Source: a bacterium (GTDB taxonomy: Bacteria > Patescibacteriota > Doudnabacteria > UBA920 > VMFF01). Taken from it: 55,458 nt of DNA. Where the stretch lies: contig JAJZOG010000007.1 in assembly GCA_021811585.1 (NCBI GenBank), forward strand, positions 1 through 55,458, in the 5' to 3' direction. Positions 772 to 37,400 of this stretch are shown one piece after another (positions within the stretch are counted from its first letter, which is position 1; each line of letters starts with the position of its first letter). The notes below the pieces were generated by a model. The model searched no databases and was not told the origin of the DNA. It saw nothing but the letters and a program-made list of their open reading frames with translations. The position numbers and the translations under genes were made by a program.

Positions 772-848
772 ATCAGGAAGTGTTTTATGCCAGAGCTTAT
801 AAGCCGCTGTGAGTTTTTGTAACAGGGGAAGGTCAGTTGGTGCGTTTA

Positions 849-869
849 CTCTCTCTCTCTCTCTCTCTC
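849..869. repeat. (CT)10 dinucleotide microsatellite between avd and the RT
   Basis: ctctctctctctctctctctc is read directly from the sequence. Confidence 0.95.
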
Positions 870-887
870 GTTTTGTTCCGAAATTTT

Positions 888-2383: not shown

Positions 2384-2432
2384 TTTTCTTTTTATCCAAA
2401 TAAATTTTCTTATCCTTCAAAATAACCTTGCT

Positions 2433-3716
2433 TTATAAAAATTGTAGCATCTTTCTTTGTTCGTCCGGATCATCGGCATCACGGAACAAAGCCTTGGCAA
2501 ATCTGCGCAAGTCAATTGCTTTTTTCTCTAGCGTCCGATCAATTACAGGTTCGCCAGTAACAAAACTATGGAAGTCATACCATTTTTCAATTTCAGCATC
2601 AAGCTCGGCGCGCATCCCAAGCAAGTCTAAATCCACATCATCAATCATATCCGCAAGCTGGCTGATCAGGTCTTGTTCGTTTATATATGGCTGCCTGCAC
2701 TTCCAGTTTTTGCCGTGGCTGCAGCCGTAATATCTGTATATAGCAATCTCGCCAGTGCTAAGTTTTTTAAATTTTTCTTGGGCTGTGACCCCGGAACCGC
2801 AATCGCCGCATTTCATAAAATGCAGGAAATTAAACTGCTTAGTCAGCTTGTATTTTTTCTTGAATGTATGCTGATTAAGTTGATCCTGGACCAAGTCAAA
2901 TAATTCTTTGGTAATAATCGGCGTATGTTGGCCTTTGTACCATTTGCCGCTTTTTCTGGGATATTCAAAGTAGCCATAATAGAAAGGTCTTCGAAGTACA
3001 AGCTGGACAGTGCTCAGTGCAATTTTATTATCAAATTTTGTTTGAAATCCGGTATCTCTGAGCCAGAATAAAATATCATAGATGCTGCATTTTTCGTATG
3101 CCACCTTTTCAAACATCTTTTTGATCACCGGCGCCCTATCTGGGTCTATTTCTACTTGGCATGCTTTATCTTTTAAGTTTGAATTCAAATACCCAAGCGG
3201 AGCAACCCCGGGCCATAAGCCCATTTCAACCCTTGCCCTCATGCCGCGCTGGACGTTGACCCCGCGATTATCATTTTCGAGCTTTGCTTGGCTGCCCAAG
3301 ATCATTAAAAGAAATTTATCATTAGGGGAGTTGGTGAATATCTGGTTATAGGTCCTGATTTCTACCAGATGCCGGCTATCCATTAAATCAACAAGCCTGC
3401 CTAAATCACCGGCGTTGCGGCTTAGTCGATCTGGATTCCAGGTTAAGATAGCATTATATTTTCCAGCTTTTAGGTCTTCAACTATTTCGTTGAATACTTT
3501 TCTCTGCCCGGAATCTTTTGCTGAATGGGATTCGGTTTTCTTAGCAACGATTTTTAGGTTTTCACGCTCCGCAATGCCCAGCATCTCTTTGAGCTGGGAA
3601 TCAATTGACAATGCCTGGCGCTCCTCGGCCTCCATGGATTTTCTGGCGTAAAGGCAGTAGGTGAGTTGATGTGATTGTTCCTTGCTTTTTTGTTTCATTT
3701 CAAATTGTTGGACCAT
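2433..3716 (-). CDS. Large serine recombinase (phage-integrase type)
   Basis: It has an N-terminal resolvase/invertase domain (YCLYARKSMEAEERQALSIDSQ... with catalytic Ser), a recombinase domain and a Cys-rich zinc ribbon (CGDCGSG...YYGCSH). The C-terminal tail looks like a coiled coil. Confidence 0.9.
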   Translation of the reverse strand: MVQQFEMKQKSKEQSHQLTYCLYARKSMEAEERQALSIDSQLKEMLGIAERENLKIVAKKTESHSAKDSGQRKVFNEIVEDLKAGKYNAILTWNPDRLSRNAGDLGRLVDLMDSRHLVEIRTYNQIFTNSPNDKFLLMILGSQAKLENDNRGVNVQRGMRARVEMGLWPGVAPLGYLNSNLKDKACQVEIDPDRAPVIKKMFEKVAYEKCSIYDILFWLRDTGFQTKFDNKIALSTVQLVLRRPFYYGYFEYPRKSGKWYKGQHTPIITKELFDLVQDQLNQHTFKKKYKLTKQFNFLHFMKCGDCGSGVTAQEKFKKLSTGEIAIYRYYGCSHGKNWKCRQPYINEQDLISQLADMIDDVDLDLLGMRAELDAEIEKWYDFHSFVTGEPVIDRTLEKKAIDLRRFAKALFRDADDPDEQRKMLQFL

Positions 3717-4228
3717 TCAACTATCAATAAAGAACTTGCTGGTACCCCACAAGCTAAAGCTCCTTCAATAAATCTTATTTGAGGTTTGGTCAGGCGATCT
3801 TTGCCTTTATTTTTTGCTTCACAAAACAGCACGGTATTATCTTTCCAAGCCAATACATCAAAACAAGCTGTTGTTTTAGAGATTTTCCAAATTCTTTGTA
3901 ATAAGGATTGTTTATTTTCAGGAATTGATACATTATTTGATCTCAATTTCCATTCAGTAGGCATCTCTTTGAGAAAATTCGTGCCACCATATGTCTCAAC
4001 CCAGATTGACTGCCAACCGGCGTCGATCAGTATTCTGGATATTGCTAGTTCTGCAAAAACTGGTTTATTTTTATAGTCGATAATGGGTTTATTACCGTAA
4101 TCAAAAGTGGGTTTTGGCCCGGTCCATAGCTTGAAAGTCGGGTGGCAAATTGGCAAAGCCGTCATTATTCCCGAATTTAACTTTACTGAAAATTCTCCGT
4201 CAGATTTTAGCTTTTTTGGTAAATCCAT
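3695..4228 (-). CDS. VRR-NUC / PD-(D/E)xK-fold nuclease-like protein
   Basis: CFDVLAWKDNTVLFCEAKNKGKDRLTKPQIRFIE gives a D...ExK pattern plus the downstream Q, as in VRR-NUC domains. It overlaps the recombinase start by 22 nt. Confidence 0.55.
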   Translation of the reverse strand: MDLPKKLKSDGEFSVKLNSGIMTALPICHPTFKLWTGPKPTFDYGNKPIIDYKNKPVFAELAISRILIDAGWQSIWVETYGGTNFLKEMPTEWKLRSNNVSIPENKQSLLQRIWKISKTTACFDVLAWKDNTVLFCEAKNKGKDRLTKPQIRFIEGALACGVPASSLLIVEWSNNLK

Positions 4229-4240
4229 ATAGGTTTATAT

Positions 4241-4810
4241 TTAGATTAGACCCTCAGATTTTATTAACGATGTAACGCAAAGCGAATACTCTTTTTCTTT
4301 GGAGGATTCTATTAGAATTTGCTCTTTGATAGCATCTTTCTCATCTATTGGTACCAATAAATATAATCTGATGAGGAGTCTAATTTTATCCAATCTCTCA
4401 GTCCTCCTTTCTAATAAGGATGGTCGGTTGAGTTTTACTAAATCCAGGGTTTTTTCTCCCTTGTCATTTGTATTAATAGAAAAAATTATTGAGTTTAGAG
4501 CATGCAAAAATTGTTCAGGATCTTCTTGGTATGGGTTAATAAGTTTTTCGTCATATTGGTCATTTTTGTATTCACGATTGCATTTAGGGCAGGCATATCC
4601 TAGATTATCCCAATCAAATTCTAAATCTGGAAAAGAGGTCTTAGGTTTTATATGCTCAACATCGCCATAATCAATATGCTCAATACGACTCTCGCAATAC
4701 ATACATTTATTAAAGCTTGATTCCTGAAGTGCTTTCTTATTTTCTGGGTGTTTGTAGTTGCTGCGTAGGGCTGTGGGATTGGGGCAGGCCGGCCGTGTCA
4801 ATTTAATCAT
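4241..4810 (-). CDS. HNH endonuclease, TIGR02646/PtuB-like
   Basis: KCMYCESRIEHIDYGDVEHIKPK...WDNLGYACPKCNREYKND is an HNH core. The N-terminal KLTRPACP... and the C-terminal LNRPSLLERR segment resemble the Septu PtuB / retron-associated HNH family. Confidence 0.75.
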   Translation of the reverse strand: MIKLTRPACPNPTALRSNYKHPENKKALQESSFNKCMYCESRIEHIDYGDVEHIKPKTSFPDLEFDWDNLGYACPKCNREYKNDQYDEKLINPYQEDPEQFLHALNSIIFSINTNDKGEKTLDLVKLNRPSLLERRTERLDKIRLLIRLYLLVPIDEKDAIKEQILIESSKEKEYSLCVTSLIKSEGLI

Positions 4811-4971
4811 TGCGGTTTTGTAATTACATTATTAAGAGCATCAGGTAAAAGTCTTTCTAAACCGATGCTTTGTAATTCAGCACGCATATTAGATAACTCT
4901 TCCTTAGTAATTTTTTTTCCTGAATATTTTTCCACCAAATTTTTTAATTTTTCCTCTGCCCAGATCGGCAT
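4807..4971 (-). CDS. Possible 54-aa ORF translationally coupled to the HNH gene (not in the ORF track)
   Basis: MPIWAEEKLKNLVEKYSGKKITKEELSNMRAELQSIGLERLLPDALNNVITKPQ. Its TGA overlaps the HNH ATG (ATGA at 4807-4810). There is no convincing SD. Confidence 0.3.
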   Translation of the reverse strand: MPIWAEEKLKNLVEKYSGKKITKEELSNMRAELQSIGLERLLPDALNNVITKPQ

Positions 4972-4991
4972 CGTAAAGGATACGCCTGGAG

Positions 4992-6038
4992 TTGAACTTG
5001 CGCTTGAACCGCAACACCGGAGAGTTCGACTTCAATCTGCTTAAAGATTTTGGTGAAGATTTTCTGGCAGATATAGGTTTCTCAAGCGAGGAGTTAGATA
5101 GTGCTTTCGGCATAGATGAATCGCCGGAAGTGTTCAATCTTGAAAAAGAATTGCAAAAGCTAGATATTAAAAAAGTGCAGCTGAAAACAGGTGATATGCT
5201 GGATCTTGATGGCAGCAGGCTTTTGGTTGGCGACTCAACCAAAGAAGCAGACATGCTGAAACTGTTTGGCAGCGAGAAAGCAGATATGTGTTTTACAGAT
5301 CCGCCATATTTGCTCGACTACCTGCATGGCAAAAAGAAAAAGCAGTCAACAAAAGGTTTTGGCCTTAAACGCGATAGAACCTATCTTGGCACAGAGTCGC
5401 TGCCTGAGAATTTTACCGACCTTTGGATGGCCAACATAGCCAAAATTCAAAAGCCAGACTTCTCCATAATCGTATACGAAAATCCAAAAAATCTGCGCAC
5501 GATTTGGAATGCGCTCGATAAGCATTGGAAGTACCGTAACACCATAATCTGGCATCTGCCTAACCGGGTGCAGGGGTTTGCTGCTAAGTATAAGTTCTTC
5601 AACAAATATGATTTTTCAATTCTTGGAACTTCTGGAAAGGTATTATTGCATGATGAGCCAGAAAGCAATCCGTTGTTGCAGGAGGAATACGAAGCTGCCT
5701 TGTTTGCCACGTCAGGCAGCCCGACCTGGGAGAAGTATGAAAAGGGTAAAAAATACTGCCCAACTGACTTTATTGAATACAAGGCAAGCGATGCCAAAAG
5801 CTCAGGCCAAGGTATTATCTTTGGAACAAAACCAGTTGAGATCCTAATACCATACATAAAAATTTTGACTAAACGCGGCGACTTGATAGCAGAACCATTT
5901 GGCGGTTCAGGATCCACTTTGATTGCTGCCACCAAGATGCAGCGCAGGTGTTTTGTTATGGAAAAAAGCAATATCTATGCCGAGGTAATCCGAAAGCGCT
6001 GGGAGAAGCTAACCGGCAAGAAAGCGAGACTTATATGA
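4992..6038 (+). CDS. DNA methyltransferase (N6-adenine/N4-cytosine, beta class, PF01555-like)
   Basis: DPPY motif (CFTDPPYLLDY) precedes the SAM motif FGGSGST. The N-terminal linker (GFSSEELDSAF...GDMLDLDGSRLLVGDS) is as in phage ParB-methylase fusions, but without the ParB domain. TTG start is uncertain. Confidence 0.85.
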   Translation: MNLRLNRNTGEFDFNLLKDFGEDFLADIGFSSEELDSAFGIDESPEVFNLEKELQKLDIKKVQLKTGDMLDLDGSRLLVGDSTKEADMLKLFGSEKADMCFTDPPYLLDYLHGKKKKQSTKGFGLKRDRTYLGTESLPENFTDLWMANIAKIQKPDFSIIVYENPKNLRTIWNALDKHWKYRNTIIWHLPNRVQGFAAKYKFFNKYDFSILGTSGKVLLHDEPESNPLLQEEYEAALFATSGSPTWEKYEKGKKYCPTDFIEYKASDAKSSGQGIIFGTKPVEILIPYIKILTKRGDLIAEPFGGSGSTLIAATKMQRRCFVMEKSNIYAEVIRKRWEKLTGKKARLI

Positions 6039-6484
6039 GCGGCAAAAATCTAAAACAGAAACAGCAGAAAACTGCGCTAGTTGAGCAACTTAAAAAAATG
6101 CCGATCATAGAGGTCGCCTGTAAGCGCATGGGTATAAGTAGGGCAGCTTACTATGTTTGGCGAAAGCAAGACATTGAATTTGCCAACATGGCTGATACTG
6201 CGATTCAAGATGGCGTCTTGTATATTAATGACCTTGCAGAATCAGGGTTGCTGTCTCAGATCAAGGACAATGATTTACAAGCAATTAAATTTTGGTTAAT
6301 CCATAGGCACTCAGCGTATGCTGCCAAACTTCAGGTTAACGCCAATCTCAATGCCTTCCAAGAACAATTAAGCCCTGACCAACAAAAAGTGGTAGATGAG
6401 GCGCTGCGTCTGCTATCGCTTAGCGATGGCGAGGAAGTAACAAAAGGAGAAAAAGAAAATGAAACTGACGCCGGAAATAATTAA
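6035..6484 (+). CDS. Terminase small subunit-like HTH protein
   Basis: Start ATG 6035 overlaps the methylase stop (ATGA). MSGKNLKQKQQKT...IIEVACKRMGISRAAYYVWRKQD is an HTH. It sits immediately upstream of, and overlaps, the large terminase. Confidence 0.6.
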   Translation: MSGKNLKQKQQKTALVEQLKKMPIIEVACKRMGISRAAYYVWRKQDIEFANMADTAIQDGVLYINDLAESGLLSQIKDNDLQAIKFWLIHRHSAYAAKLQVNANLNAFQEQLSPDQQKVVDEALRLLSLSDGEEVTKGEKENETDAGNN

Positions 6485-8024
6485 GCGCATGCACAATGAC
6501 CGCGATATTAGGAGAGCTATTACCAAGCGCAGCTTTGAAGCCTTTTTCGGCTATTATTTTGGCGATTACCTTGAATATGAAAGTGCCCCATTCCATACCC
6601 AAATGTTTAAGCTTTGTGAGAACGACAATACTAAATTGATTGTAATCAAAGGTTTCCGCGAAAGCGCCAAGTCCACCCTAATGGCTCAAGCCTATCCAAT
6701 TTGGGCGGCTATATCAGGTCGCGCTAAAGAAATAGTGGTAATTAGTAAAACCCAAATGCTTGCCCGCCATTTGCTTAAAAATATCCGCGCTGAACTGGAA
6801 GAAAATAAGTGGCTTATTAATGATTTTCAACCGTATGATTTTATGGAAGATCAGTCGGGTGCTTATGCGGTTACTTTAAAACGCTATCATTCAGAAATTA
6901 TTGCGGTATCGCGCGATCAAGGCATTCGCGGCATTCGACATCGCCAGCATAGGCCAGGTCTAATAGTCATTGACGATGCTGATGATTTGGCAAGCGTTAA
7001 AACTCAAGAATCCAGAGACGATACCTGGAACTGGCTAATGCGCGACATTATTCCTTTAGGCAGCAAGAATACTAAAATGGTAGTGCTTGGTTCGCCACTA
7101 CATGACGACAGCATGATCATGAGACTCAGCAAATCTATTGCTGATGGACTTATGAAAGGTGTGGCTCTTCATATTCCCATAGTTGATGACGCGGGCAAAC
7201 CAACTTGGCCTGCAAAGTTTCCAACCCAAGCAGATATTGAGGAGGCACGCAGTAAAATGGATGAATTAGCTTGGCAAAGGGAAATGATGCTAAAGATAGT
7301 TCCCGAAAATGGACAAATTATCAGCCGTGAGGATATATCTTTTTATGATGAGCAGCCACTTAGGTCAGATTCTAAATCTGAGTTTATTGAACGGATCGGT
7401 TCAATTGATTTTGCTTTAAAAGACAAGCAATCTGCTGATTTTACAGCAATGGTTGAAGGAGATATTTATGGATATGACCAAGAACGAGTTATATATATTC
7501 AGCCAAATCCGTTAAACAAAAGATTGGAGTCACACCAGGCGCTAAACGAAGCGGTCCTGCGTTCCAATCCGCCAGGATCTAAATATCCAAACAAGCTTGT
7601 TGTTGAAGACGTTGGCGCCTCAATAGTTTTTATTGACCTGCTAAAGCAAAGCCATATTCCAGTTCAAAGTTTCCAGCTTAAAAGCCAAGATAAACGAGAG
7701 CGATTTTCCATAGCCGCAAGCTGGATTAAAACCGGCAGAGTAAAACTGCCGCGTCATGGCTGCGAGCGGCTCATTGAACAAATAGTAGGCTTTGGAACAG
7801 AGCGTTTCGATGACCTTTTGGACGCGCTTGTTCAACTGATCATTTATGTCATGGAAAATAATGGCGGAAAAATGGGAGGAATAGTGTCAATAGATTTAGG
7901 AATTGATTATAACCTTGAAGGCGGACTGCTTCCTGCCAATTATAGGCCACCACATCTTTTGCCACTTAGACGAAGCACGAATATAAATAACATCTTGGGT
8001 AAAAGCAGATATCTTAGAGACTAA
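6459..8024 (+). CDS. Phage terminase large subunit
   Basis: Walker A-like GFRESAKST and Walker B LIVIDDADD. The C-terminal RNaseH-like nuclease part has IDFALKDKQSADFTAMV, VEDVG and FDDLLDALV. SD aaaggag lies upstream. Confidence 0.85.
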   Translation: MKLTPEIIKRMHNDRDIRRAITKRSFEAFFGYYFGDYLEYESAPFHTQMFKLCENDNTKLIVIKGFRESAKSTLMAQAYPIWAAISGRAKEIVVISKTQMLARHLLKNIRAELEENKWLINDFQPYDFMEDQSGAYAVTLKRYHSEIIAVSRDQGIRGIRHRQHRPGLIVIDDADDLASVKTQESRDDTWNWLMRDIIPLGSKNTKMVVLGSPLHDDSMIMRLSKSIADGLMKGVALHIPIVDDAGKPTWPAKFPTQADIEEARSKMDELAWQREMMLKIVPENGQIISREDISFYDEQPLRSDSKSEFIERIGSIDFALKDKQSADFTAMVEGDIYGYDQERVIYIQPNPLNKRLESHQALNEAVLRSNPPGSKYPNKLVVEDVGASIVFIDLLKQSHIPVQSFQLKSQDKRERFSIAASWIKTGRVKLPRHGCERLIEQIVGFGTERFDDLLDALVQLIIYVMENNGGKMGGIVSIDLGIDYNLEGGLLPANYRPPHLLPLRRSTNINNILGKSRYLRD

Positions 8025-8048
8025 AAAATAATACCGGCTTTGCCGGTA

Positions 8049-8432
8049 TTATTCGCGTTCAATCCTAACTATAACCAAGTATCCGTTATGGTAGTTTTCA
8101 TCATATCCACGAATCATTCTCCACACAGTGTTGGTTAAATTTGATTGGTATTTTTTGAATTCAGCCTTAAACGCTTTTTTGTATTTCCCATAAAGTTCAT
8201 CAGGAAAAACCACTTGTATTGTTGGGAAATCTTTTTCATCTTTTCCCCAATCAACCATTTTTAGAATATTGGCTTTGGGACAAGCAGCAGAAATACGCTG
8301 TGAAATTTCTTTGATAAATCTATCAATTTCAAAGCGGTTATATGCCTTAGGAGAATCCATATCCTTAATATTAAAAAATAAAGCAGGGATATTTACAGGG
8401 AGAATACCTTTATGTTTGCGGGTTTCTTGCAT
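8049..8432 (-). CDS. Hypothetical protein
   Basis: 127-aa ORF. On its strand TATAAT (8444-8439) lies 6 nt upstream of the ATG, so the transcript may be leaderless. Confidence 0.55.
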   Translation of the reverse strand: MQETRKHKGILPVNIPALFFNIKDMDSPKAYNRFEIDRFIKEISQRISAACPKANILKMVDWGKDEKDFPTIQVVFPDELYGKYKKAFKAEFKKYQSNLTNTVWRMIRGYDENYHNGYLVIVRIERE

Positions 8433-8487
8433 ATTTCAATTATACACCCATCCTGGACTTATGTTAGATGTTGCGGTACTGTCTGCT

Positions 8488-8680
8488 TGGCTAAGACAAG
8501 ACAGTGTAATTAACAAAATCAAAGGGTTTTTGAGCCTACCTAGCTGACATTGAGAAAATTAGACAATTTAACTATAATTACATTAACAACTGAATAAATT
8601 CAGTAGCCTAAACCAGGAGAAATTTTGGCATGGCTAAATCCACAGAAATGCGAAGACGGTCACCTGTCTTGTCTTAGCCA
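8488..8680. repeat. Perfect 17-bp inverted repeat pair (8488-8504 and 8664-8680) bracketing a 159-bp segment
   Basis: tggctaagacaagacag at 8488-8504 is the exact reverse complement of ctgtcttgtcttagcca at 8664-8680. Confidence 0.9.
8550..8578 (+). promoter_or_regulatory. Near-consensus sigma70-type promoter facing the gene at 8767
   Basis: TTGAGA (8550-8555), 17-nt spacer, TATAAT (8573-8578). It lies inside the inverted-repeat-bracketed segment. Confidence 0.6.
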
Positions 8681-8766
8681 TTTCTGTGGTCCCTAGCCGA
8701 AAGGTTAGGTGGGGCAAGCGGGTGGCCCTTTTTGATAACTAAAAACCCCGCGGAAAGAAAAATTGT

Positions 8767-9729
8767 ATGAGCGGTTTATTTGTATTCCTGCTCCTAATAT
8801 CAATAGTGTGTCTGGTGCTGGGACTAATTATGCCAGCTTGGTTTAATAAGGTGTTTAGGGGCAGCGCGTCAAGAAAGAAAATTGCCATAACTTTTATAAG
8901 TGCAATAATAGTTTTCTTCGTACTAATAGGGGTAACATCTCCCAAGACAACTATATCTCAGAAACAAGTAATAGACACCACTTCAAAAACAACCGCTAAT
9001 CAGCAAGTGGCTCAATCAACCCCACAGTCTACTAGCAACTCGGTAGCTACAACGTCAGCAAGTTCGGCCATAATTCCGCAGCCAATAAAAACACCGCCAG
9101 CCTCTATTGTCAAAAATATTCCTACACAAATTACTAAACCTAACACAACAACATCATCCAACACTACTACACCTGTCACACAATCGAGTCAGCCTGCTAC
9201 AACACCAACCCCACAGCCTACGCCGGCTCCACCAGCACCTAAATCACCTGCTACTAGTTTTGGTGATGGAAACTATGTTGTGAGTACTGATATTCAACCT
9301 GGCACTTATAGAACTCGTGTCGGATCACCTGGATGCTACTACGCTCGCTTGAGTGGGTTTAGCGGTTCAATGGACGAGATACTGGCGAACAACAATACTG
9401 ATTTTCCAGCAGTAATTACAATACCGTCTTCCGACAAAGGATTTCAAAGTTCTAGTTGTGGAACTTGGACTCAAGACCTCTCTGAAATTACCAGTAGCCA
9501 GACATCTTTTGGTGATGGCATATTTATTGTAGGAACTGATATGCTGCCAGGTACCTATCGTAGTTCAGGTTCCACAGGTTGTTATTATGCCAGAGTGAGC
9601 GGTTTTAGCGGCACCGATGGTGAAATATTGGCTAATGATAATACCGATACTGCAGCTGTCGTAACCATACTCGCTAGTGATAAGGGATTTGTGTCATCCA
9701 ATTGTGGAACGTGGGTTAAAATTGATTAA
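8767..9729 (+). CDS. Membrane-anchored protein with a Thr/Ser/Pro-rich linker and two tandem ~75-aa Cys-containing domains
   Basis: N-terminal TM helices. The repeats are TSFGDGNYVVSTDIQPGTYRTRVGSPGCYYARLSGFSG...SSCGTWTQ and TSFGDGIFIVGTDMLPGTYRSSGSTGCYYARVSGFSG...SNCGTWVK. Confidence 0.75.
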   Translation: MSGLFVFLLLISIVCLVLGLIMPAWFNKVFRGSASRKKIAITFISAIIVFFVLIGVTSPKTTISQKQVIDTTSKTTANQQVAQSTPQSTSNSVATTSASSAIIPQPIKTPPASIVKNIPTQITKPNTTTSSNTTTPVTQSSQPATTPTPQPTPAPPAPKSPATSFGDGNYVVSTDIQPGTYRTRVGSPGCYYARLSGFSGSMDEILANNNTDFPAVITIPSSDKGFQSSSCGTWTQDLSEITSSQTSFGDGIFIVGTDMLPGTYRSSGSTGCYYARVSGFSGTDGEILANDNTDTAAVVTILASDKGFVSSNCGTWVKID

Positions 9730-9761
9730 AAAATAACTGTAAAAAAGATAGAGCAAAAACT

Positions 9762-10202
9762 ATGAATGAAAACAATACAAGTTTAATACAGAGTATTGGT
9801 AGCAGGGGTAGAAAATTGCTAAAAGAAAATATTGGACAAGACGAAAAAATCTTGATTGAGTTGCAGGGTGCCTTTGGGCAGGTTTTAGTAGTTACAGATA
9901 AACGCTTGTACATTATCAAGTGGGGATTTATGGCTGGCAGCACTTTTGGCGGCAGATGTCTGGCATTTGAATTCAAGAATATAACGGGTGTAAAAATCAC
10001 TAAGAATTTTGTAACCGGCGAATTTGAGATTGTTAGCCCTGGTAATCAGGATAATCAAAAAACTTATTGGGGTATGACTAATCGCACTGATGCTAATAAA
10101 GCTGATAATGTGGTGGTTTTCCGCAGAAAGAGCTTTGGGCCTTTCCAGCAGGCTGCCAACTTGGCTAGGGACTTAATTAATCAAGCACATAGTAAGAGTT
10201 GA
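9762..10202 (+). CDS. Hypothetical protein, possibly a bacterial PH-like domain
   Basis: 146-aa ORF. ILIELQGAFGQVLVVTDKRLYIIKWG...VKITKNFVTGEFEIV resembles YokE/bPH-type domains. Confidence 0.5.
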   Translation: MNENNTSLIQSIGSRGRKLLKENIGQDEKILIELQGAFGQVLVVTDKRLYIIKWGFMAGSTFGGRCLAFEFKNITGVKITKNFVTGEFEIVSPGNQDNQKTYWGMTNRTDANKADNVVVFRRKSFGPFQQAANLARDLINQAHSKS

Positions 10203-10409
10203 TTTGTCAATTTTCTCTGAGTAAAAAGTATTAATTTTTTAGAAGAACACGGCTATCGTCCGTGTCCTTCGCTCCCAATTTAATGTAGACATTTTGAAAA
10301 CTAAACATGTCTCATGTTAGCACTTTTTGAATATTGTATAAGGCTAAAATGAGGAATTTTCAAGGGGTTTTATAGGTCTGGACAGGGCAGGCGGATTGCG
10401 TCATTCATT

Positions 10410-10793
10410 GTGTTACCTGGGGCAAAAGAGCTTCTAGGTAGAAAGGAATATATGAATGAGGTAATGAACGCTGGACTTATGCAGGCTGCTCCTGTGCAGG
10501 GGGTGCATGGGGAGTTGTCTCGTTTGAATTCTGAGTATCCCGGAGAAACGATTCCTTGGAATGGAAATGACGTTTTAACTATTTCGATGCAGGAATATGA
10601 ACGGGCGGTAGAAACTCTTCTGCATTTAAAAGATGTCTTTGCGTTGCCGCAAGACTTGGAACATATACACTGGCAGAGTGTGAATAGAAACTCTTTTTCA
10701 CCAGATTTTGTTACTCGTGTTAATCATACCTTGGTCAATGTTTCAAATCTGGGTCCGTTTTTTTTCCAACCGGGACTCGAACCTGAAAAATAA
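10410..10793 (+). CDS. Hypothetical protein (start uncertain; first ATG at 10452)
   Basis: ORF track only; no recognisable motifs. Confidence 0.4.
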   Translation: MLPGAKELLGRKEYMNEVMNAGLMQAAPVQGVHGELSRLNSEYPGETIPWNGNDVLTISMQEYERAVETLLHLKDVFALPQDLEHIHWQSVNRNSFSPDFVTRVNHTLVNVSNLGPFFFQPGLEPEK

Positions 10794-10923
10794 GGAAAAA
10801 TTCACAAACAGATCCTGAGCAATATAAAATCCACAAACCTAGTTTTGTGGATTTTATATCTGACCTCAATGTTTATGGGTACTTTTGCGTACAGCACCTG
10901 GGTCAGGTTGAACGTGTTGAATT

Positions 10924-10998
10924 TGGCTCGAGAGGTGGGATTCGAACCCACAACCAACCGGTTAACAGCCGGTTGCTCTACCGTTGAGCTACTCTCGA
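10924..10998 (-). tRNA. tRNA-Asn (anticodon GTT), CCA encoded
   Basis: The reverse complement is TCGAGAG-TA-GCTC-AACGGTA-GAGC-A-ACCGG-CTGTTAA-CCGGT-TGGTT-GTGGG-TTCGAAT-CCCAC-CTCTCGA-G-CCA. This is a 75-nt full cloverleaf. Confidence 0.95.
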
Positions 10999-13296: not shown

Positions 13297-13340
13297 ATGT
13301 TTTTACGGGTTTTTTTATGGGTCCCCCCAAACCTAAAAAT

Positions 13341-13727: not shown

Positions 13728-13863
13728 AAATTGTTTTTAAATTCTAGCTGGTTTGAGCCGCGCTTATCTGCGTTTGCCGTGTTTTAATTATGCTTTTTTG
13801 CCGCATTTTTTCCCGTGTTTTCAGGACTGTCCGTTTCCCGGGTTTTCCTGCTACACTATATAT

Positions 13864-15219
13864 ATGATAGAGGAAATTGGAAATCTTCCCGGATATGAAC
13901 TTTTGGACAGCGGGCTTTTTAGTTTTGCGGGTGGTTTTGCGGGTGGTGGATCGAAGGGTGCGCTAAAAGGCGCATCGGAATCGAAAAGATTGGATGAAGT
14001 GAAAAGTGTTTCAGCCGCACCGGGCGCGGTGTCGAATAGCGCATCAAAAAAATTTGATTCAGTGCAGGATGCGGATGCCGAAGGATATCGCCTGGAGCGC
14101 TTCGGTGATTTTATTTTGGCGCGGCCCGATCCTGCTGCAATTTGGGAAAAAGAATTGCCGCAAAGCGAATGGGAAAAAGCGGATGCGTTTTTTGCGCGCG
14201 CAAAAAACGCGGCAAATTTCGCGCCGGAGGTTTCAGCGTCCAACGGCGCGGCTTCGGATGCGACTAAAGGCAAATGGATCCTCAAAAGAGAAATCCCCGA
14301 GCAGTGGCTCCTGCATTTTCTCACCGGCACGCCGCTGGAAATTTCTTTTTATGCGCGCCTGGCTCCTTTTAAGCATACGGGAATTTTCCCCGAGCAATCC
14401 GCGAATTGGAATTTTATAGTTGAGCAAGCGAAACGGATCGAGAGCAGGAAACAGATGGCCCGCCAAAATTTTGCAGAAGATTCATTGGAAAATTCATTGG
14501 AAGATTCATCGAAAAATGCTTCGGAAAATCCGCTGAAAAATTCCGCACAAAATTCCGCAAAAAATTCATCGGAAAATCCATCTAAAACTTCATTCGAAAA
14601 TTTCAAGGTGCTTTCTCTTTTTGGGTACACCGGGATCGCAAGCGCGCTTTGCGCAAAAATCGGCTGGGAGGTGACGCACGTGGATGCTTCGCGGCCTTCA
14701 ATTTCTTGGGCAAAAGAAAACATGCTGGCCTCCGGATTGCCCGGCGATTCCATCCGCTGGATCTTGGAAGACGCTTTGAAATTTGTTAAGCGCGAGGCGC
14801 GCCGCGGTGCGAAATACAATGCTTTCATTTTGGATCCGCCTGCTTTTGGGCGCGGTGCAAAAGGCGAGGTTTGGAAATTTAACGAGGATTTGCCAAAACT
14901 CATGTTCGCTTTGCGCGAAATTTCGGCGCCGCCCGAGGAGTTTGAATTCGCAATTGTAAATGCTTACGCGGTTTCAGCGCCATCGCTTCTGTTAAAAAAT
15001 TTATTGGATGATTTTGCGCGGGGGATTGGGCTCGAAGTTGGCGCTGATCAAAGTACAATCTCAAATCACAATGCCGCCTTTTTGGACACCGCCGCCCTCG
15101 CCAATACCGTCGAAGCAAAGAAAGCGGTTATTGATTACGGCGAACTTATTTTGCGGCAAAGCTCAAACCCAAAACGTTTGCTTTCCACCGGGAATTTCGG
15201 AAGACTTTATACGCATTAG
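13864..15219 (+). CDS. Class I SAM-dependent methyltransferase (RlmI/YwbD-like, PF10672-type) with low-complexity inserts
   Basis: VLSLFGYTGIASALCAKIG...THVDAS...FILDPPAFGRGAKGEVWKF. The likely start is the ATG at 13864 (MIEEIGNLPGYELLDSG); the tracked ORF starts at 13753. Confidence 0.75.
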   Translation: MIEEIGNLPGYELLDSGLFSFAGGFAGGGSKGALKGASESKRLDEVKSVSAAPGAVSNSASKKFDSVQDADAEGYRLERFGDFILARPDPAAIWEKELPQSEWEKADAFFARAKNAANFAPEVSASNGAASDATKGKWILKREIPEQWLLHFLTGTPLEISFYARLAPFKHTGIFPEQSANWNFIVEQAKRIESRKQMARQNFAEDSLENSLEDSSKNASENPLKNSAQNSAKNSSENPSKTSFENFKVLSLFGYTGIASALCAKIGWEVTHVDASRPSISWAKENMLASGLPGDSIRWILEDALKFVKREARRGAKYNAFILDPPAFGRGAKGEVWKFNEDLPKLMFALREISAPPEEFEFAIVNAYAVSAPSLLLKNLLDDFARGIGLEVGADQSTISNHNAAFLDTAALANTVEAKKAVIDYGELILRQSSNPKRLLSTGNFGRLYTH

Positions 15220-15887: not shown

Positions 15888-15950
15888 ATTCGGTTGGCTC
15901 AGAAATTTTTTGCAAACTCAAAATCGCTTCCCGGCGATTTTTTAGATTGG

Positions 15951-16003
15951 GGGTTTGGATTAGGGGTTTAGGTTGGGGGTTTGGGTTGGACCCGTTTAAT
16001 AAA
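15951..16003 (+). repeat. Solo arm (G-rich orientation) of the G-tract palindromic element
   Basis: tttagattgggggtttggattaggggtttaggttgggggtttgggttggaccc. Confidence 0.9.
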
Positions 16004-22877: not shown

Positions 22878-23111
22878 TTAATCGATTCTGATAATTTTAG
22901 GAGTTAAAAATTCCTGCTCGAAAAAGACCTTGGGCAAAGCTTGTGATTGTTCCATCTCCGTTTTTCTGCGCCGGCGTTCTTTCTGCAGATCCTGTTTTGC
23001 CGCCTGCTGTTCTTCGAATTCGAGCTTTTCCAATATCAAATGATATGTCTTAAGCGGAATAAACGGTTTAATTTTTTCAAGTTTTTCGCGTCTGGTCATA
23101 CGGGTCGTCAT
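22878..23111 (-). CDS. Small charged hypothetical protein
   Basis: MTTRMTRREKLEKIKPF... has its first ATG 2 nt from the repeat element; the second ATG is at 23099. The tracked ORF extension MGWTR is encoded by the repeat. It ends 6 nt before the next gene. Confidence 0.5.
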   Translation of the reverse strand: MTTRMTRREKLEKIKPFIPLKTYHLILEKLEFEEQQAAKQDLQKERRRRKTEMEQSQALPKVFFEQEFLTPKIIRID

Positions 23112-23113
23112 AC

Positions 23114-23294
23114 GGGTCCAACCCAAACCCCCAACCTAACTCCCCAATCTAAGGACACGATTGTGGTGTTTAGGCAAGTGTTTTAATAATATTTTAATTG
23201 AGTTTCCCTTATATATTGCATAAATATCCTTAGATTGGGGGTTTGGATTAGGGGTTTAGGTTGGGGGTTTGGGTTGGGGTATTGGGTTGGACCC
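23114..23294. mobile_element. 181-bp MITE-like palindromic element, copy 1
   Basis: 41-nt C-rich left arm (23114-23154), 73-nt AT-rich core and 67-nt G-tract right arm (23228-23294). It differs from 50997-51177 by a single base. Confidence 0.85.
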
Positions 23295-25374
23295 AAAGTT
23301 CCAACAAAGTTTCGCAGGCATCTTCAATAAAGCGCTTCACGGGCCGCGCGCCAAAACGATAATCCGCAAGCGCCCTGATTTTTTCGCGCAGAATTTCGGG
23401 GTCGATTTTAAATTTAATGCCGTGTTCGTCTCCGGCACGCTCCTCAATTTTTCGAATCTCCGCTCTGGCAATTTCCAAAAGCTCCGCCTCTCCAAGCGGG
23501 TTGAAGACAATTATCGCATCAAAACGGTTCAGGAATTCAAGTTTAAAATTTTGCGTCAAAATCGGCATCATTGTTTTTTTCAAAAATTCCGCGCCGGAAA
23601 CGTTTTCTCCTCGCTCAAAAGCATCCACGAGTTCCGCAATCCCCAAATTGGAAGTGGCGATGATAATCGTATCCGAAAAATTTACCGTCTGTCCTTGGCC
23701 GTCGGTAAGCCGCCCGTCTTCCAAAACTTGTAAAAAAATATCGAAAATTTTTGGATGCGCTTTTTCAATTTCATCAAGCAAGATCAGCGAATATGGCTGG
23801 TTTAAAACAGCGTTGGTAAGCTGTCCTCCGGATTCGAAGCCAATATATCCAGGCGGCGCGCCGATCAGGCGCTGCTGCGCGTGCGCTTCGGAAAATTCGC
23901 TCATGTCAATGCGCACGAAAGCGCGTTCAGATCCGAAGACGCTTTTGGCAAGAACTTTGGAGAGTTCGGTTTTCCCGACACCCGATGGCCCCAAAAACAG
24001 GAACGAACCGTTTGGTCTTCCGGGGTTCCGCAGCCCAATTATGCTCCTGCGCACAACTGCTGCCACGATTTTTGCGGCTTGTTTTTGCCCGATTATATTT
24101 TTATTAAGTATTTCTTCAAGATTAAGTTGTGGATTTGGATCAGCCGCTTGCCGTGTCTCGCGCTCTTTTTTAAGCCCTGCTCCGCGTTGCTTGTTCATTA
24201 CTGTTTCGTGTCCCGCTGTTGATATCCTGCCGTCATACCCCTCTGTGGATATCATGTTGCCGCGTTTCGTAATTACCCCCAAAGGCGCGTTTGTGGAATT
24301 TGAGGATGTCCCCAAAGGAGTATTTGCAAAATTCGCTGCCGGCCCTAAAGGCACGCCGGTTTTTTCGGAATAGATTTCGCGAATTTCTTTTTTGCTGAGC
24401 TCTTTTAATCCCGAAATTTTTGCGAATGCCAGGCATTCATCCAAAAAATGAATGGCGCGAAGTGGAAATTTTTTTTCCGAATTCATTTTAGCCGCAAGTT
24501 CAACGATGCTTTTAAACGCGTCGGTGCGCACGCGCACACCGTACTGTTTTTCAAAAGCAGGGGACAACGCGCGCAGAATTTCTTCGCTTTCTCGGCTGTC
24601 GTGCTGGGCGATGCGAATCTCCTCAAAGTTTTTTAAGAACCCCGGGGTCTCTGCGGCAATGCGCGCATATCCTTTTTCAGTCATCGCCAAAATCAAACTG
24701 ACTTCGTTTTTCTTAAAAAACGGATCCAGCACTTGCGCGGTTTCATAGAGCCGCCCTTCCAGACAAACATTCTCAAAATCATCGATGAAAATAATTGAGC
24801 GTTCGGGAATTTTTTTGAATGCCGCGCTAAGATAATTAAATCCTTCTTGCGTGCCGACTTGCGCGAAAAGTTTTTTGAGGTTGCCGCTATCAAGGCGCGC
24901 AAGAGAGTAATTTTCAAAACCGAAAATCGCATTTTTTGCATTGTTTTCCGTGCCATTTGATTTTCGGTTAGCTGCATCGTTTCCTATGCCGTTCGCTCTT
25001 TTATCTGTTGTGTTTATGGCAGTGCTATTTTTAGTGTTGTTTATGCTGCCATCCACAGTCCCGCTCATTCTTTTGTTTATTGCGTTTGTGGCAGTGCCAT
25101 TCCCGGTGCCGCCATTCCCGGTGCCGCCATTCCCGGTGCCGCCATTCCCGGTGCCGCCATTCCCAGTGCCGCCATCCACAGCGCCGTTTGCCGCGCGATA
25201 AAAGAAGGCCTCCACGAGCGCGGTTTTCCCCGTGCCGCTTTCGCCGCGCACAATTATATTATTGTTGTACTGGCGTTTGAGCGTCCGCGCCATGCGCCTA
25301 AGCTCGGCCTCGCGTGTAATCGCATCGCCAATGCTCTTTCGTTTTGCTTCTTGTTTTAGATCGTAGTAAATCAT
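23248..25374 (-). CDS. Clp/Hsp100-family double-AAA+ ATPase (ClpB/ClpC-like) with large low-complexity inserts
   Basis: D1 has RGESGTGKTALVEAF and IIFIDDFE. D2 has FLFLGPSGVGKTELSKVLA...LIGAPPGYIGFESGGQLT...ILLDEIEKAHPKIFDIFLQVLEDGRLTDGQG. The last ~15 codons and the stop lie inside repeat copy 1. Confidence 0.85.
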   Translation of the reverse strand: MIYYDLKQEAKRKSIGDAITREAELRRMARTLKRQYNNNIIVRGESGTGKTALVEAFFYRAANGAVDGGTGNGGTGNGGTGNGGTGNGGTGNGTATNAINKRMSGTVDGSINNTKNSTAINTTDKRANGIGNDAANRKSNGTENNAKNAIFGFENYSLARLDSGNLKKLFAQVGTQEGFNYLSAAFKKIPERSIIFIDDFENVCLEGRLYETAQVLDPFFKKNEVSLILAMTEKGYARIAAETPGFLKNFEEIRIAQHDSRESEEILRALSPAFEKQYGVRVRTDAFKSIVELAAKMNSEKKFPLRAIHFLDECLAFAKISGLKELSKKEIREIYSEKTGVPLGPAANFANTPLGTSSNSTNAPLGVITKRGNMISTEGYDGRISTAGHETVMNKQRGAGLKKERETRQAADPNPQLNLEEILNKNIIGQKQAAKIVAAVVRRSIIGLRNPGRPNGSFLFLGPSGVGKTELSKVLAKSVFGSERAFVRIDMSEFSEAHAQQRLIGAPPGYIGFESGGQLTNAVLNQPYSLILLDEIEKAHPKIFDIFLQVLEDGRLTDGQGQTVNFSDTIIIATSNLGIAELVDAFERGENVSGAEFLKKTMMPILTQNFKLEFLNRFDAIIVFNPLGEAELLEIARAEIRKIEERAGDEHGIKFKIDPEILREKIRALADYRFGARPVKRFIEDACETLLELWVQPNTPTQTPNLNP
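25096..25170. repeat. 15-bp tandem repeat x5 inside the Clp-like gene (encodes GGTGN x5)
   Basis: gccattcccggtgcc x4 plus gccattcccagtgcc. Confidence 0.95.
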
Positions 25375-25519: not shown

Positions 25520-26686
25520 TTACGCCGCGTTCGCCGCTGCGGATTTTACAGAACCTTGCCGCGTTTGTCCGCTTTGGCTGGCATTCAAATCGTCGGATGA
25601 GCTTAATGTGCCGGATTGCGCGGATTTAAAAATTATAATGCGCTCGGATTTTGATGCGGCTGTATTTTTTGGAGTCAGCTCGGCCGCCGAAGGGGATTCA
25701 TGAACCGCTGCTGAATGGAATTCATGGATCGCCGCCGAAGGGGATTCATGAACCGCTGCTGAATGGAATTCATGGATCGCCGCCGAAGGGGATTCATGAA
25801 CCGCTGCTGAATGGAATTCATGGATCGCCGCCGAAGGGGATTCATGGGCCACCGCCCTTGGGAGATCCTCTATTTTTTGACCCTCCGCTTTTAAGATTTC
25901 CACTTTTTGGACTTCTATCTGCTGCACGTTCTCAGAAATATTTTCAGAAACGCTCTCAAGTGCAACGCCTTCCAGGGAAATTCCTGTTTCCAAAACTATC
26001 TGCCTGTATTGCTCCGCCGCCTCGCCTTCAAAAGAGATTTCATTTTTGGTTTGTTGGCTGCGCATGTCCGCGTCCCAGACCTGTTCGTCTCCGTCAAAAT
26101 TCTCAGCCGCTGCCTCGCTGATTTTTTTAATGCAAGTTACAGCTGTTCTTGATTCGAAATGATAGATAATTATGGATTTTTCACCGCGTTCGTTGGAAGA
26201 AAATTCCTGAATGCCCCAGCCGTGTTTGTAAACTTCGGCCATGGCCTGCCCGTAGGCCGCTTTGTCTTCAGCGCGCGTCATGAATTCGGACCACGGCTTT
26301 GCCATTTCCTCGGTCGGCCCTGAGGCGCAAAATTCGCCGTTGGAAAAAAATCCCATTGTCGAAGCGACAAAAGAAAAACCCTCGGGTATTAAAACGGAAA
26401 AAGTTTGTTCGGAAATTTTTGGTTTTTCTTCTTCCAATGTTTCTTCAAATTCGTTTTCAGCATCCTCGATGTTTTCCGGATTCTCCATAATGTCCTCGAC
26501 GTTCTCCGGATTTTGCACGACATTTTCCAAACTCTCCGCAACGTTCTCGACGTTCTCCGGATTCGCGGCATTTTCCGCGTCTTCGCTCTCAGCGGCAAAG
26601 GATTCGCGCGAAAAAATATCTTCATTTCGCGTTGATAGAAAATCTGATTGCGTTTCTTCGGGTATTGTTGAAATTATTTCGCTCAT
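25520..26686 (-). CDS. Acidic repeat-containing hypothetical protein
   Basis: 388-aa ORF with NPENVE-type acidic repeats, a globular middle part and (HESPSAAIHEFHSAAV)n repeats. Confidence 0.6.
   Translation of the reverse strand: MSEIISTIPEETQSDFLSTRNEDIFSRESFAAESEDAENAANPENVENVAESLENVVQNPENVEDIMENPENIEDAENEFEETLEEEKPKISEQTFSVLIPEGFSFVASTMGFFSNGEFCASGPTEEMAKPWSEFMTRAEDKAAYGQAMAEVYKHGWGIQEFSSNERGEKSIIIYHFESRTAVTCIKKISEAAAENFDGDEQVWDADMRSQQTKNEISFEGEAAEQYRQIVLETGISLEGVALESVSENISENVQQIEVQKVEILKAEGQKIEDLPRAVAHESPSAAIHEFHSAAVHESPSAAIHEFHSAAVHESPSAAIHEFHSAAVHESPSAAELTPKNTAASKSERIIIFKSAQSGTLSSSDDLNASQSGQTRQGSVKSAAANAA
25683..25850. repeat. 48-bp tandem repeat, about 3.5 units, inside the CDS
   Basis: The unit gccgccgaaggggattcatgaaccgctgctgaatggaattcatggatc starts at 25683, 25731, 25779 and 25827 (partial). 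Confidence 0.95.
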
Positions 26687-26694
26687 ATATATAG

Positions 26695-26870
26695 TGGGGG
26701 ATATAGTGGAAGATGTGGTTGGAAAATGGAGATATTGTGCGGGATAATGTGGGAAAGATATTGTGGGCGATAATGTGTGGAGATATAGTGGGTGAGATAT
26801 TGAAATATGTAGCGGGGAGTTTAGTGGGGGTGTAGCGGGGTGTAGTGTGGGAGATGTAGTGTGGAATTTG
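26695..26870. repeat. Degenerate array of about 14 units of an 11-14-bp G-rich motif (ATAKWGTGGG-like)
   Basis: Units include atatagtggaag, atattgtgcggg, ataatgtgggaaag, atattgtgggcg, ataatgtgtggag, atatagtgggtgag, tttagtggggg, tgtagcgggg and tgtagtgtgggag. Confidence 0.8.
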
Positions 26871-27155
26871 CCTATGTTGTATTGAATTATTATCAGAGCA
26901 TTGCGTGCGCATCCACACCGACGGACTTGTCCGCGAAAATAAAAACGCCATCAGCAGGGATGGTGTTTGTGGCGCCATTTTCCTGCTCGGGAAAATTTCG
27001 AAGTTTGGTATCTGGCTTGTCCCGATTTCTCGGGATTTACAGTTGCGGCACAGCGCCGGAATCGCACCGGCTTCCCAACTAGTTTTCAAATTTCTGTCTC
27101 AATCTTAGCGCGGACGTTTTTGAATGTCAAATTTTTCAGGAAACCGAAGGTTGCC

Positions 27156-34400: not shown

Positions 34401-37400
34401 TGCGAAATGATAGTTATGTAACAATTGTTGGTCAGCAGAAAACAATATATAATGGCCTAGCTTCGGAATTGGCAGCATCAACTGGGACTAATAATGTTTA
34501 TCAAAAAATAGATAATGGTACGGGGAATATTTATTTAGGTGTAGAGAATAGTGCGGGTGGTTCATTATTCACTAACGCTTCCGCATATTCCGGAGTCATA
34601 GGAACTGGCGCGAATGAGTCCCTGCATTTAGCGGCAAATAATTCTGTTGCTATGACAATTTTAGGTAGCGGCAACGTCGGAATCGGCACAACTTCTCCAA
34701 GCAGCGTATTGACTGTAACAGGAGCATCCGGCACAAGCGGAACAACAGGCACCGCTGCCACACAAGTATTGGCAATCACAGGAGGTGCCGGAGGAAACTC
34801 CAGCGCAGCAACAACAGCAGGAGGCGCAGGCGCAGCGGTTAATATAACTTCAGGAGCAGGCGGTAATTCCACAGGTGTGGCAGGAACAAACGGAGCAAAT
34901 ATCACTTTGCAAGGTGGTGCAGGCGGAACAGGTACAACCACAGGAAGCTATGGAAACATCTTACTTAACCCAACTGGTGGTGATGTGGGGATTGGCACAA
35001 CGAGCCCAACCTTTGGATTGGATGTTAATACCAGTGGCGATAATACAGGGGAAAGAATCTCATCGGGTAATGCGACAGAGTTACGTTTAGACACGACAAA
35101 TTCTTATGCGACCGCTCGAAATTACGCAATAGAAACAAACGACCTAGTGTTTGGAGATTTTAATATTATGACCAGCAACGCGTTGGGCGGTGACCCTGTT
35201 TCAGCCGGAACATCTCGGCTTTATATAAATCCTTCCGGCAACGTCGGCATCGGCACAACGAGTCCGGGTGGAAAGTTGGAAGTGAATGGCACATCACTCT
35301 TTGATTCAAATATGTCGTTTCCAATTAATGCTCCAAGCGCAGGTGGCACACAAAATATAATTAGTCAGGAAAATGTCCTACAGACCGGTGGATATTGGAA
35401 CATCCAGACAAGAGGATATGGAACGGGCAATATAGCGAGCTTTGCATTACAAACCAATAATACTAATGATTATGTGTTATTACAACCTGATGGAGGTGAC
35501 GTCGGCATCGGCACAACCTCCCCAAGCAGCGTATTGACTGTAACAGGAGCATCCGGCACAAGCGGAACAACAGGCACCGCTGCCACACAAGTATTGGCAA
35601 TCACAGGAGGCGCCGGAGGAAACTCCAGCGCAGCAACAACAGCAGGAGGCGCAGGCGCAGCGGTTAATATAACTTCAGGAGCAGGCGGCAATTCCACAGG
35701 TGTGGCAGGAACAAACGGAGCAAATATCACTTTGCAAGGTGGTGCAGGCGGAACAGGTACAACTACCGGGAATTATGGAAATATATTGTTAAATCCGAAT
35801 GGTGGTGATGTTGGGATTGGGATTACTACTCCGAGTAACATATTGTCTGTTGGTAATGATATTGGAGCTACGGTCAACCCTTCGAACACTATTGCTATCG
35901 GCAATACATCTGGTAATTCGACGCTAACAATTGGCCAGAGTAATACGAGCAGGGCAAGGGCTAGTTGGATATATAATGCGACATCCGGCAGTGCGTATGC
36001 TGTTTTTGGAGCGGTGGGGACTAATCCGCTCGATCTGCAGGATGAAGGTGGCAATGTTGGGATTGGCACAACCACACCATTGGCGCATTTAGATATAGCA
36101 GTAGGGTCTTCTAATGCCGATGGTATTTCCGTGCACGGCGGCGGTAATTCGCAATCAATATTAATCCAGCCAAATTCTTTGGTTGGCGCATTTATTGCGG
36201 GTGGCACTGCGGCTGATGGCACCAACAACGGGAATAGCGGCGATGCCGCTGGCCGCATAATTTTGCAAGCCAGCGCAAATGATGGCATGCAGTTCCAATA
36301 TTCCAACAGTACGATTGGCAACGCTACCAGAAGTTGGACAACGGGAATGGTATTGGGTACGGGCACTTATGCCGGCAACGTCGGAATCGGCACAACTTCT
36401 CCAAGCAGCGTATTGACTGTAACAGGAGCATCCGGCACAAGCGGAACAACAGGCACCGCTGCCACACAAGTATTGGCAATCACAGGAGGCGCCGGAGGAA
36501 ACTCCAGCGCAGCAACAACAGCAGGAGGCGCAGGCGCAGCGGTTAATATAACTTCAGGAGCAGGCGGCAATTCCACAGGTGTGGCAGGAACAAACGGAGC
36601 AAATATCACTTTGCAAGGTGGTGCAGGCGGAACAGGTACAACCACAGGAAGCTATGGAAACATCTTACTTAACCCAACTGGTGGTGATGTGGGGATTGGC
36701 ACAACTTCGCCCGCTGCGACTTTGGATGTCCAAAAATCCGCGGATTCGTATACGACTTTTGATGCTATAATCGGTCGCATTAGCACGGGAAAAAATTTCA
36801 CTCATTTAAGGTTGCGTGCAGGCAATGGGGGTTATACTTCAGACACGGATATCGCGGCTGCCTATCAAGGCGACACGTTTATTGGCAATAACTTTTATAA
36901 TGATGGAAACCGTGGTGCTAAATTTGATTCCTCAATGCCGGCTTGGTGGATTCGCATGGGTGGAAATGATGATTATTTCGATTTAAGCCGGACGACCACA
37001 GATTACTTAACCGGTGATGCCACTTTATTGCACATTACAAATGCCGGGGATGTGGGTATCGGCACAGCAACACCAACTAATGAGTTAGAAGTTGGCAGCG
37101 GCCAATTCGCTGTTGATACGATGGGCGCAAATCAAATTGCTTTTAATTCTGCCGGCTCATGGGGTGTGATTACTAATAATGGAAATGATGTTTGGTCACT
37201 CGGAACAGCAGCGACACCTTCATCAACAGCTACTTCGGTTTTAACTTGGAAGTTGGATGGCGATGTTGGTATTGGGACGACAAACCCTTCATATCCATTA
37301 GATATAGAGACATCAACAACCGCTTATGGCATATATGATCTTAATACATATAATCAGGCAGGAAATACTTATGCAATTCAAGGCCAAGCTGAAAATACTA

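Follow-up and report, generated by a model that had tools for sequence, protein, structure and literature searches.

Two nearly identical sequences of 181 nt lie 27.9 kb apart in the stretch of DNA analysed in this study (hereafter the window; 55,458 nt), whose ClpC-like protein has its homologues in Patescibacteria, with Ca. Doudnabacteria as the nearest named relatives. Their presence raises the question of what the repeated sequence is, how it reached two different sites and how the genes on either side have accommodated it.

The coordinates given for the two copies in the preliminary description, 23114-23294 (copy 1) and 50997-51177 (copy 2), were confirmed, as were the division of each copy into a 41-nt left arm, a 73-nt core and a 67-nt right arm and the single mismatch over 181 nt (G at 23271, A at 51154). 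Both copies have the same orientation. In copy 1, the C-rich left arm (56% GC) extends over 23114-23154, the AT-rich core (26% GC) over 23155-23227 and the G-rich right arm over 23228-23294. Copy 1 is located between a ClpC-like gene (23248-25374, minus strand) and a small ORF (22878-23111, minus strand), and copy 2 between smpB (50557-50994, minus strand) and argS (51204-53261, plus strand). Identity between the copies runs 6 nt further on the left (TCATAC) and 0 nt further on the right, which gives a full repeat of 187 nt; in both copies the shared left flank includes the ATG of the downstream minus-strand gene. Because homology extends only these 6 nt past the left end and not at all past the right end, with unrelated flanks beyond, the copies are not a segmental duplication, an origin that the preliminary description had listed among those that would refute its reading. 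The common 6 nt may mean either that they belong to the mobile unit or that one copy gave rise to the other along with some flank, and they point to copying that was imprecise, not to a clean cut-and-paste event at the terminal repeats.

The element was described as devoid of coding capacity, and indeed stops interrupt every reading frame and its concatenated six-frame translation retrieved nothing from the protein database at E <= 10. Its ends form terminal inverted repeats, as had been proposed, with arms of 39-48 nt that are 85-87% complementary and a terminal 13 nt that is identical in both arms. An arm-derived 19-mer (GGTTGGGGGTTTGGGTTGG) occurs 15 times in the window with up to three mismatches, compared with 0.02 occurrences expected by chance. 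The predicted hairpin folding of the 181-nt element is stronger than that of shuffled sequences on both strands (z = -5.9 on the plus strand and -8.3 on the minus strand).

The arms are built from tandem 13-nt G-tract units (TTRGRTTRGGGGT) and end in a fixed terminal unit (TTGGGTTGGACCC), a structure that was read by cutting each arm back from its terminus. They are direct sub-repeat arrays and not palindromes themselves. In copies 1 and 2 the left arm contains three units and the right arm five, and the terminal unit TTGGGTTGGACCC is present in six of six arms in the window. The third pair of arms, overlooked in the preliminary description, is 95% complementary, with its members 2547 nt apart. 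The lone left, C-rich arm (L3, 13341-13393) contains four units followed by about 45 nt of core-like sequence (TTTAATAATAATTTAATT, compared with TTTAATAATATTTTAATT in the core), and a remnant terminus (gggtccccccaaacctaa) is found near it at 13319-13336. The lone right, G-rich arm (R3, 15941-15997) contains four units and has no core; a 48-nt part of it is 100% identical to the right arm of copy 1, and it lies immediately next to a terminator-like hairpin and T-run after a 6-phosphogluconolactonase gene.

Genes for a SAM-dependent methyltransferase and the 6-phosphogluconolactonase, and no transposase, are located between L3 and R3. The adjacency of the methyltransferase gene to ThiF is ancestral, being present in the relative L074, so the lone arms call for a further explanation, for example truncation or rearrangement. 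Capture of cargo by the two arms was considered and is weakened by this ancestral adjacency and by the lack of a core beside the right arm; it is at least as likely that L3 and R3 are two truncated elements as that they form one cassette. The 6-phosphogluconolactonase gene, which lies between the methyltransferase and ThiF genes, is absent from L074. The SAM-methyltransferase-like ORF (13753-15219) encodes 451-488 aa, compared with 316 aa for its L074 homologue, and contains a Ser/Asn/Glu-rich low-complexity insertion.

Several other repeats were noted in the window. A C-rich leader of about 170 nt with a period of about 11-14 nt and units of the CCCACACTACA and CCCACTATATCT type (26700-26870, minus strand) is placed between a cobalamin riboswitch (26986-27122) and the ATG of a 388-aa ORF at 26686. 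Tandem arrays at 47369-47465, 48183-48282 and 48845-48921 are built from 32-nt, approximately 14-29-nt and 11-nt units such as GGTTCGGCAAA; they are intergenic or 5'-proximal, upstream of and into a 241-aa ORF (48849-49574).

Comparison with related genomes indicates how copy 1 came to lie where it does. The gene order PaaX_M-like, X, ClpC, small ORF, TraG-like and response regulator is the same in the window and in four relatives. In L074, L075 and L076 the ClpC gene either overlaps the small ORF or shares with it a base at stop and start, without any element, and in the sister species L073 they are separated by a 108-nt spacer that likewise contains no element. In the window, the right arm is read as coding sequence on the minus strand: positions 23248-23294 provide the last 14 codons of the ClpC-like gene (VQPNTPTQTPNLNP), a TAA stop and two bases of a Trp codon. 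The ClpC-like proteins of relatives end 3-12 residues past a conserved ...E(T/E)(L/C)..L motif, and their tails are unrelated. At the other end of copy 1, a 12-nt tandem duplication (two copies of gtcatacgggtc, 23095-23118) runs across the left terminus and gives the small ORF two in-frame ATGs, at 23111-23109 and 23099-23097. The small ORF is without the variable N-terminal region of 10-40 residues found in relatives and now begins MTTRM, at an ATG within the 6-nt flank GTATGA (23108-23113). The comparison shows that copy 1 replaces both the tail and stop of ClpC and the variable N-terminus of the small ORF. The ClpC-like ATPase of the window is also long (708 aa, compared with about 550 aa in relatives) and contains low-complexity insertions rich in Gly, Asn and Thr.

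At the second site, argS and smpB are divergent neighbours in two relatives, where the spacer measures 33 nt (L079) or 106 nt (L077) and contains no element. The same 6-nt flank GTATGA found at copy 1 adjoins copy 2 (50991-50996, minus strand) and contains the smpB start codon (50994-50992). This start is ancestral, all homologues beginning MK(A/V/T)L. An ancestral back-to-back promoter region is kept outside the right end of copy 2 (51178-51210). It comprises an extended -10 of argS (TGTTATAAT, 51188-51196, plus strand) located 7 nt before the argS ATG, and a site in the smpB direction (TTTTCA-17-TAGAAT, 51210-51182, minus strand) that stops 4 nt short of the element. The sequence ATTATAACATA(A/G)AAT is conserved in L077 and L079. 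A conserved box (TAGAAT/TAAAAT) is found 4 nt upstream of the right end of copy 2 and overlaps the argS extended -10 on the opposite strand. Copy 2 is probably the 5' leader of smpB, whose message would start at or near the element terminus and carry the whole hairpin; the smpB AUG would then sit 2 nt past the base of the hairpin stem. The argS/smpB promoter region is just 33 nt long in one relative (L079:9968-10000; compare 51178-51203 in the window), and both genes look leaderless or nearly so, with a -10 box 7-11 nt from each ATG.

Because both the ClpC/small ORF and the argS/smpB sites are empty in relatives, the two window copies are lineage-specific insertions, in keeping with the recent mobility that had been proposed, as one option beside gene conversion, from their near-identity. 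A related element also exists outside this genome. In the sister species L073, whose ClpC and SmpB are 57% and 79% identical to those of the window, we identified a diverged 159-nt element of the same build (L073:2615-2773) with 48-nt arms that are 85% complementary and contain four 13-nt units, an AT-rich core of 63 nt and a predicted fold with z = -10.5. It is inserted 6 nt past the stop codon of the PaaX_M-like gene and 1 nt before the TTGACA of a cobalamin-riboswitch promoter, and the corresponding site between these two features is empty in the window. There are thus three filled sites, two in the window and one in L073, each with empty counterparts in relatives, and the genes beside the three full copies are unrelated.

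The arms are conserved between the two species and the cores are not alignable. Both arms of the L073 element carry the terminal unit CTGGGTCGGACCT, which differs from TTGGGTTGGACCC of the window by three changes, each made on both arms. The GGGG tracts and the 13-nt spacing are kept across species and the bases between them vary. The order of the internal units differs between the two arms of the L073 element, as would be expected if unit content were no less important than perfect pairing.

The known carriers are two species in a small comparative sample. In about 63 kb of this genome we found two full copies and two lone arms. No arms were present in about 80 kb from the more distant relatives L074, L075, L076 and L079, and an arm profile (nhmmer) detected no additional arms, diverged ones included, across about 213 kb of window and related loci and none in the 7.8 kb beyond the window end. 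An exact 19-mer search (GGTTGGGGGTTTRGGTTGG) returned 12 loci in the genome contig collection, all of them single chance matches of 19-21 nt in unrelated phyla, and no matches in viral contigs; among metagenome contigs it returned 55 loci, and the ones examined proved to be telomere-like or degenerate G-tract arrays that lacked both a core match and a paired arm. A blastn search of the element against plasmids and phages gave nothing.

These data show recent copying of the entire 181-nt unit to new sites, which are very short gene junctions of a compact genome. On balance, and with confidence somewhat above even, we interpret the element as a small, non-autonomous, palindromic mobile repeat that represents a new family resembling MITEs and Rickettsia palindromic elements (RPEs) and is confined to a narrow lineage of Patescibacteria (CPR, Doudnabacteria-related). 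The MITE-like label of the preliminary description holds in part: the element is non-coding, has terminal inverted repeats, shows insertion polymorphism and, at 181 nt (159 nt in L073), is below the MITE size bound of about 600 bp, but it has no target-site duplication, and in the DNA covered here it showed no autonomous partner and a very low copy number. No target-site duplication flanks copy 1, copy 2 or the L073 element, and none of the TA, 4-bp or 5-bp duplications considered is consistent across copies. A longer autonomous relative with the same ends, envisaged in the preliminary description, was found neither in the window nor in about 210 kb of loci. The view that such elements are unexpected in a streamlined genome was too strong, since Rickettsia palindromic elements are classic palindromic repeats in a streamlined genome.

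The statement that the window contains no transposase stands for DDE-type enzymes, but a large serine recombinase and a reverse transcriptase are encoded within 1-11 kb of the window. Both belong to a prophage-like island (837-10998) that adjoins tRNA-Asn (10924-10998) and encodes a group-II-like reverse transcriptase (837-1898), the large serine recombinase (2433-3716, minus strand), an HNH/PtuB-like protein (4241-4810, minus strand), an N6/N4 DNA methylase (4992-6038), a terminase large subunit (6459-8024) and a LOOT RNA (8605-8728). None of the island genes is bounded by arms, and no link between the island and the element was seen.

Under the interpretation as a mobile repeat, the sub-repeat arrays would be bound by a putative trans-acting enzyme whose gene lies elsewhere in the genome or has since disappeared, and movement would leave no target duplication. 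The transcribed element may fold into a long hairpin that brings the flanks back together, so that the insertion would be tolerated. It may also be tolerated by virtue of usable signals that the element carries, namely in-frame codons and a stop for ClpC and the GTATGA start codon for the small ORF. At argS/smpB, the old promoter would be kept just outside the element end and the element would become the 5' leader of smpB. If the hairpin or a G-quadruplex affected expression, this would be a side effect of insertion.

A different view, which we regard as unlikely but the most serious competitor, is that the element is a selected cis-regulatory module and not selfish DNA, acting through G-quadruplexes, 13-bp iterons that bind a protein, or a 5'-leader or inter-cistronic hairpin that tunes smpB, argS and the ClpC operon, and spread by recombination. 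The placement and composition of the arms are consistent with such a role: five of six arms immediately precede a gene whose sense strand is the G-rich one, and the six arms, which score 1.6-2.2 with G4Hunter, account for six of the eight window regions with |G4Hunter| >= 1.5. Of the two regions outside the elements that score highly, one is the 26700-26870 leader. Conservation of the GGGG tracts and of the 13-nt spacing, together with the differing unit order in L073, argues for unit content over perfect pairing, and paired, inverted tandem repeats able to form G-quadruplexes are known in Xanthomonas intergenic regions (PMC4692102). Regulation by the element is nevertheless difficult to reconcile with the orthologous genes in four or five relatives, which manage without it, with the unrelated genes that flank the three full copies, and with a core that has no sigma-70-type promoter match and is not conserved between species. 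Moreover, the left arms of copies 1 and 2 have just three tracts of at least three G, and the near-identity of the whole 181 nt points to copying of a unit, not to convergent selection. A bidirectional promoter cassette was rejected, there being no sigma-70-type match in the core.

A bolder reading, in our judgement doubtful, sees in the element a mobile 'junction cassette' suited to ultra-compact CPR genomes, one that would provide its own in-frame tail and stop on one side and the GTATGA start on the other, with a hairpin re-apposing the flanks. Both genes would then survive its insertion at an overlapping stop/start junction or a leaderless promoter. If this were true, genes that had been leaderless or translationally coupled, among them smpB of the tmRNA system, would become leadered and gated by a hairpin or quadruplex.

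It is very improbable that the two copies represent a structured small RNA gene. The strong and significant predicted fold on both strands would suit one, but Rfam searches at gathering and E-value thresholds gave nothing except plant miRNA hairpins far below threshold, no promoter or terminator signal was found, the loop or core is not conserved across species, and the arm sub-repeats align in several registers, as is typical of sub-repeats and not of a defined helix.

Lower still in our ranking is the possibility that the copies are attL/attR-like direct-repeat ends of a 27.9-kb segment that excises as a circle. It derives from a public contig that we reached via the exact SmpB protein (L013; GCA_027365855.1, DAHXLS010000006.1, 27,033 nt), which is 100% identical to the window, joins ClpC to smpB through the element and is a circular permutation of the interval between the copies (window 23108-51177), so that it could be read as that circle. 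The segment, however, carries tmRNA, smpB, infC-rpmI-rplT and ClpC, with no replication or integration genes, and the contig to which the window belongs measures 163,037 nt. The k=141 assembly of sample ERZ27237454 contains four contigs that break off within the element, one per flank, as expected of an unresolved 187-nt repeat. Because both window junctions consist of ancestral synteny plus the element, the ClpC-element-smpB join of L013 is best read as a wrong path through this repeat; it appears to be a mis-join, with some room for a rare real recombinant. L013 ends within 300-nt repeats at window positions 34669-36672, where three copies (94-99% identical) lie inside a giant surface-protein gene. 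Tandem-repeat copy number also differs between assemblies of the same organism at 25683-25879 and 25081-25200: a 24-nt repeat is 48 nt shorter in L013 than in the window, and the ClpC-like protein has 698 aa in the ENA contig and 708 aa in the window owing to a 15-nt GTGNG repeat.

We give hardly any credence to integron-type attC sites, with the arms at 13341 and 15997 bounding a gene cassette. The window termini GTCCAAC and GTTGGAC do fit RYYYAAC and GTTRRRY, and the element forms an imperfect palindrome, but the AAC/GTT core is broken in the termini of the sister species (GTCCGAC and GTCGGAC), and attC sites are usually 57-141 nt long, which 181 nt exceeds. The window has no array of sites in the same orientation and no tyrosine integrase or intI, and the methyltransferase-ThiF adjacency is ancestral; attC identity was rejected on the L073 termini and the lack of intI and of a cassette array.

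An assembly artefact or segmental duplication in the window itself, to which near-identical copies 27.9 kb apart and the alternative path taken by L013 might point, is the least probable account and effectively refuted, given that the flanks are unrelated beyond 6 nt, that the second assembly has four independent contigs terminating in the element, each with one of the four flanks expected, that synteny backs both junctions and that extra arms and a sister-species element exist. The artefact caveat raised in the preliminary description therefore does not hold for the window but does apply to a different public assembly, L013.

Among known systems, the mobile repeat proposed here would function most like Rickettsia palindromic elements and Correia elements, by analogy. 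RPEs are palindromic non-coding repeats of about 100-200 nt in a reduced genome, have no recognised transposase and can be located within coding sequence or at its edge, adding residues to proteins. The present element is similarly a palindromic non-coding repeat in that size range in a small, reduced genome with no recognised transposase, and it is found at the edge of coding sequences, giving ClpC 14 codons and a stop and the next ORF a start codon. No sequence likeness to RPEs is apparent, its arms of 13-nt G-tract units set it apart from them, its insertion bridges two overlapping genes and is not in-frame within one, and far fewer copies have been found so far. Correia elements have a TA target duplication, 26-nt terminal repeats and hundreds of copies; in contrast, the present element has no target duplication, sub-repeated arms of 39-67 nt, no promoter match and few copies. 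Correia elements (CREEs) are described as able to create promoters, to bind IHF and to be cleaved or protected by RNase III (PMC2649163). The likeness to this Neisseria MITE lies in terminal inverted repeats around a core, a position beside gene starts, co-transcription and a hairpin that is a possible RNase III substrate.

G-quadruplex tandem repeats of Xanthomonas (GGGAATC) and Nostoc (GGGGAYT) are intergenic, occur singly or as inverted pairs, may form a stem-loop or quadruplex and vary in unit number (PMC4692102). The present arms share with them the intergenic arrays of G-tract units, single or in inverted pairs, with varying unit number. The Xanthomonas and Nostoc units are 7 nt long, with convergent pairs mostly at conserved orthologous sites, whereas the element has 13-nt units, outward arrays, a fixed non-repeat terminus (GGACCC) and a core that is copied along, and is insertion-polymorphic. 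The inverted, 95% alike arms L3 and R3, which enclose two genes, resemble mobile insertion cassettes, in which terminal inverted repeats flank passenger genes without a transposase; they differ from these in the ancestral methyltransferase-ThiF adjacency and in the right arm without a core. REP/REPIN sequences mobilised by RAYT, which are imperfect palindromes of 20-40 nt arranged as inverted doublets and accompanied by a RAYT (IS200-like TnpA) gene, were rejected, since the arms are direct sub-repeat arrays and not palindromes and no Y1 transposase domain occurs among the window genes.

In the literature searched, we found no description of recently mobile miniature elements in Patescibacteria, and the present element provides a documented case in a genome of this group. 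For studies of metagenome-assembled genomes, it illustrates that a 187-nt repeat suffices to break or mis-join short-read assemblies. For the biology of these bacteria, it shows how genes that overlap at stop and start, or that diverge from a promoter region of just 33 nt, can accommodate an insertion. Terminal repeats built as arrays of 13-nt G-tract units are unusual and could point to an undescribed mobilising enzyme.
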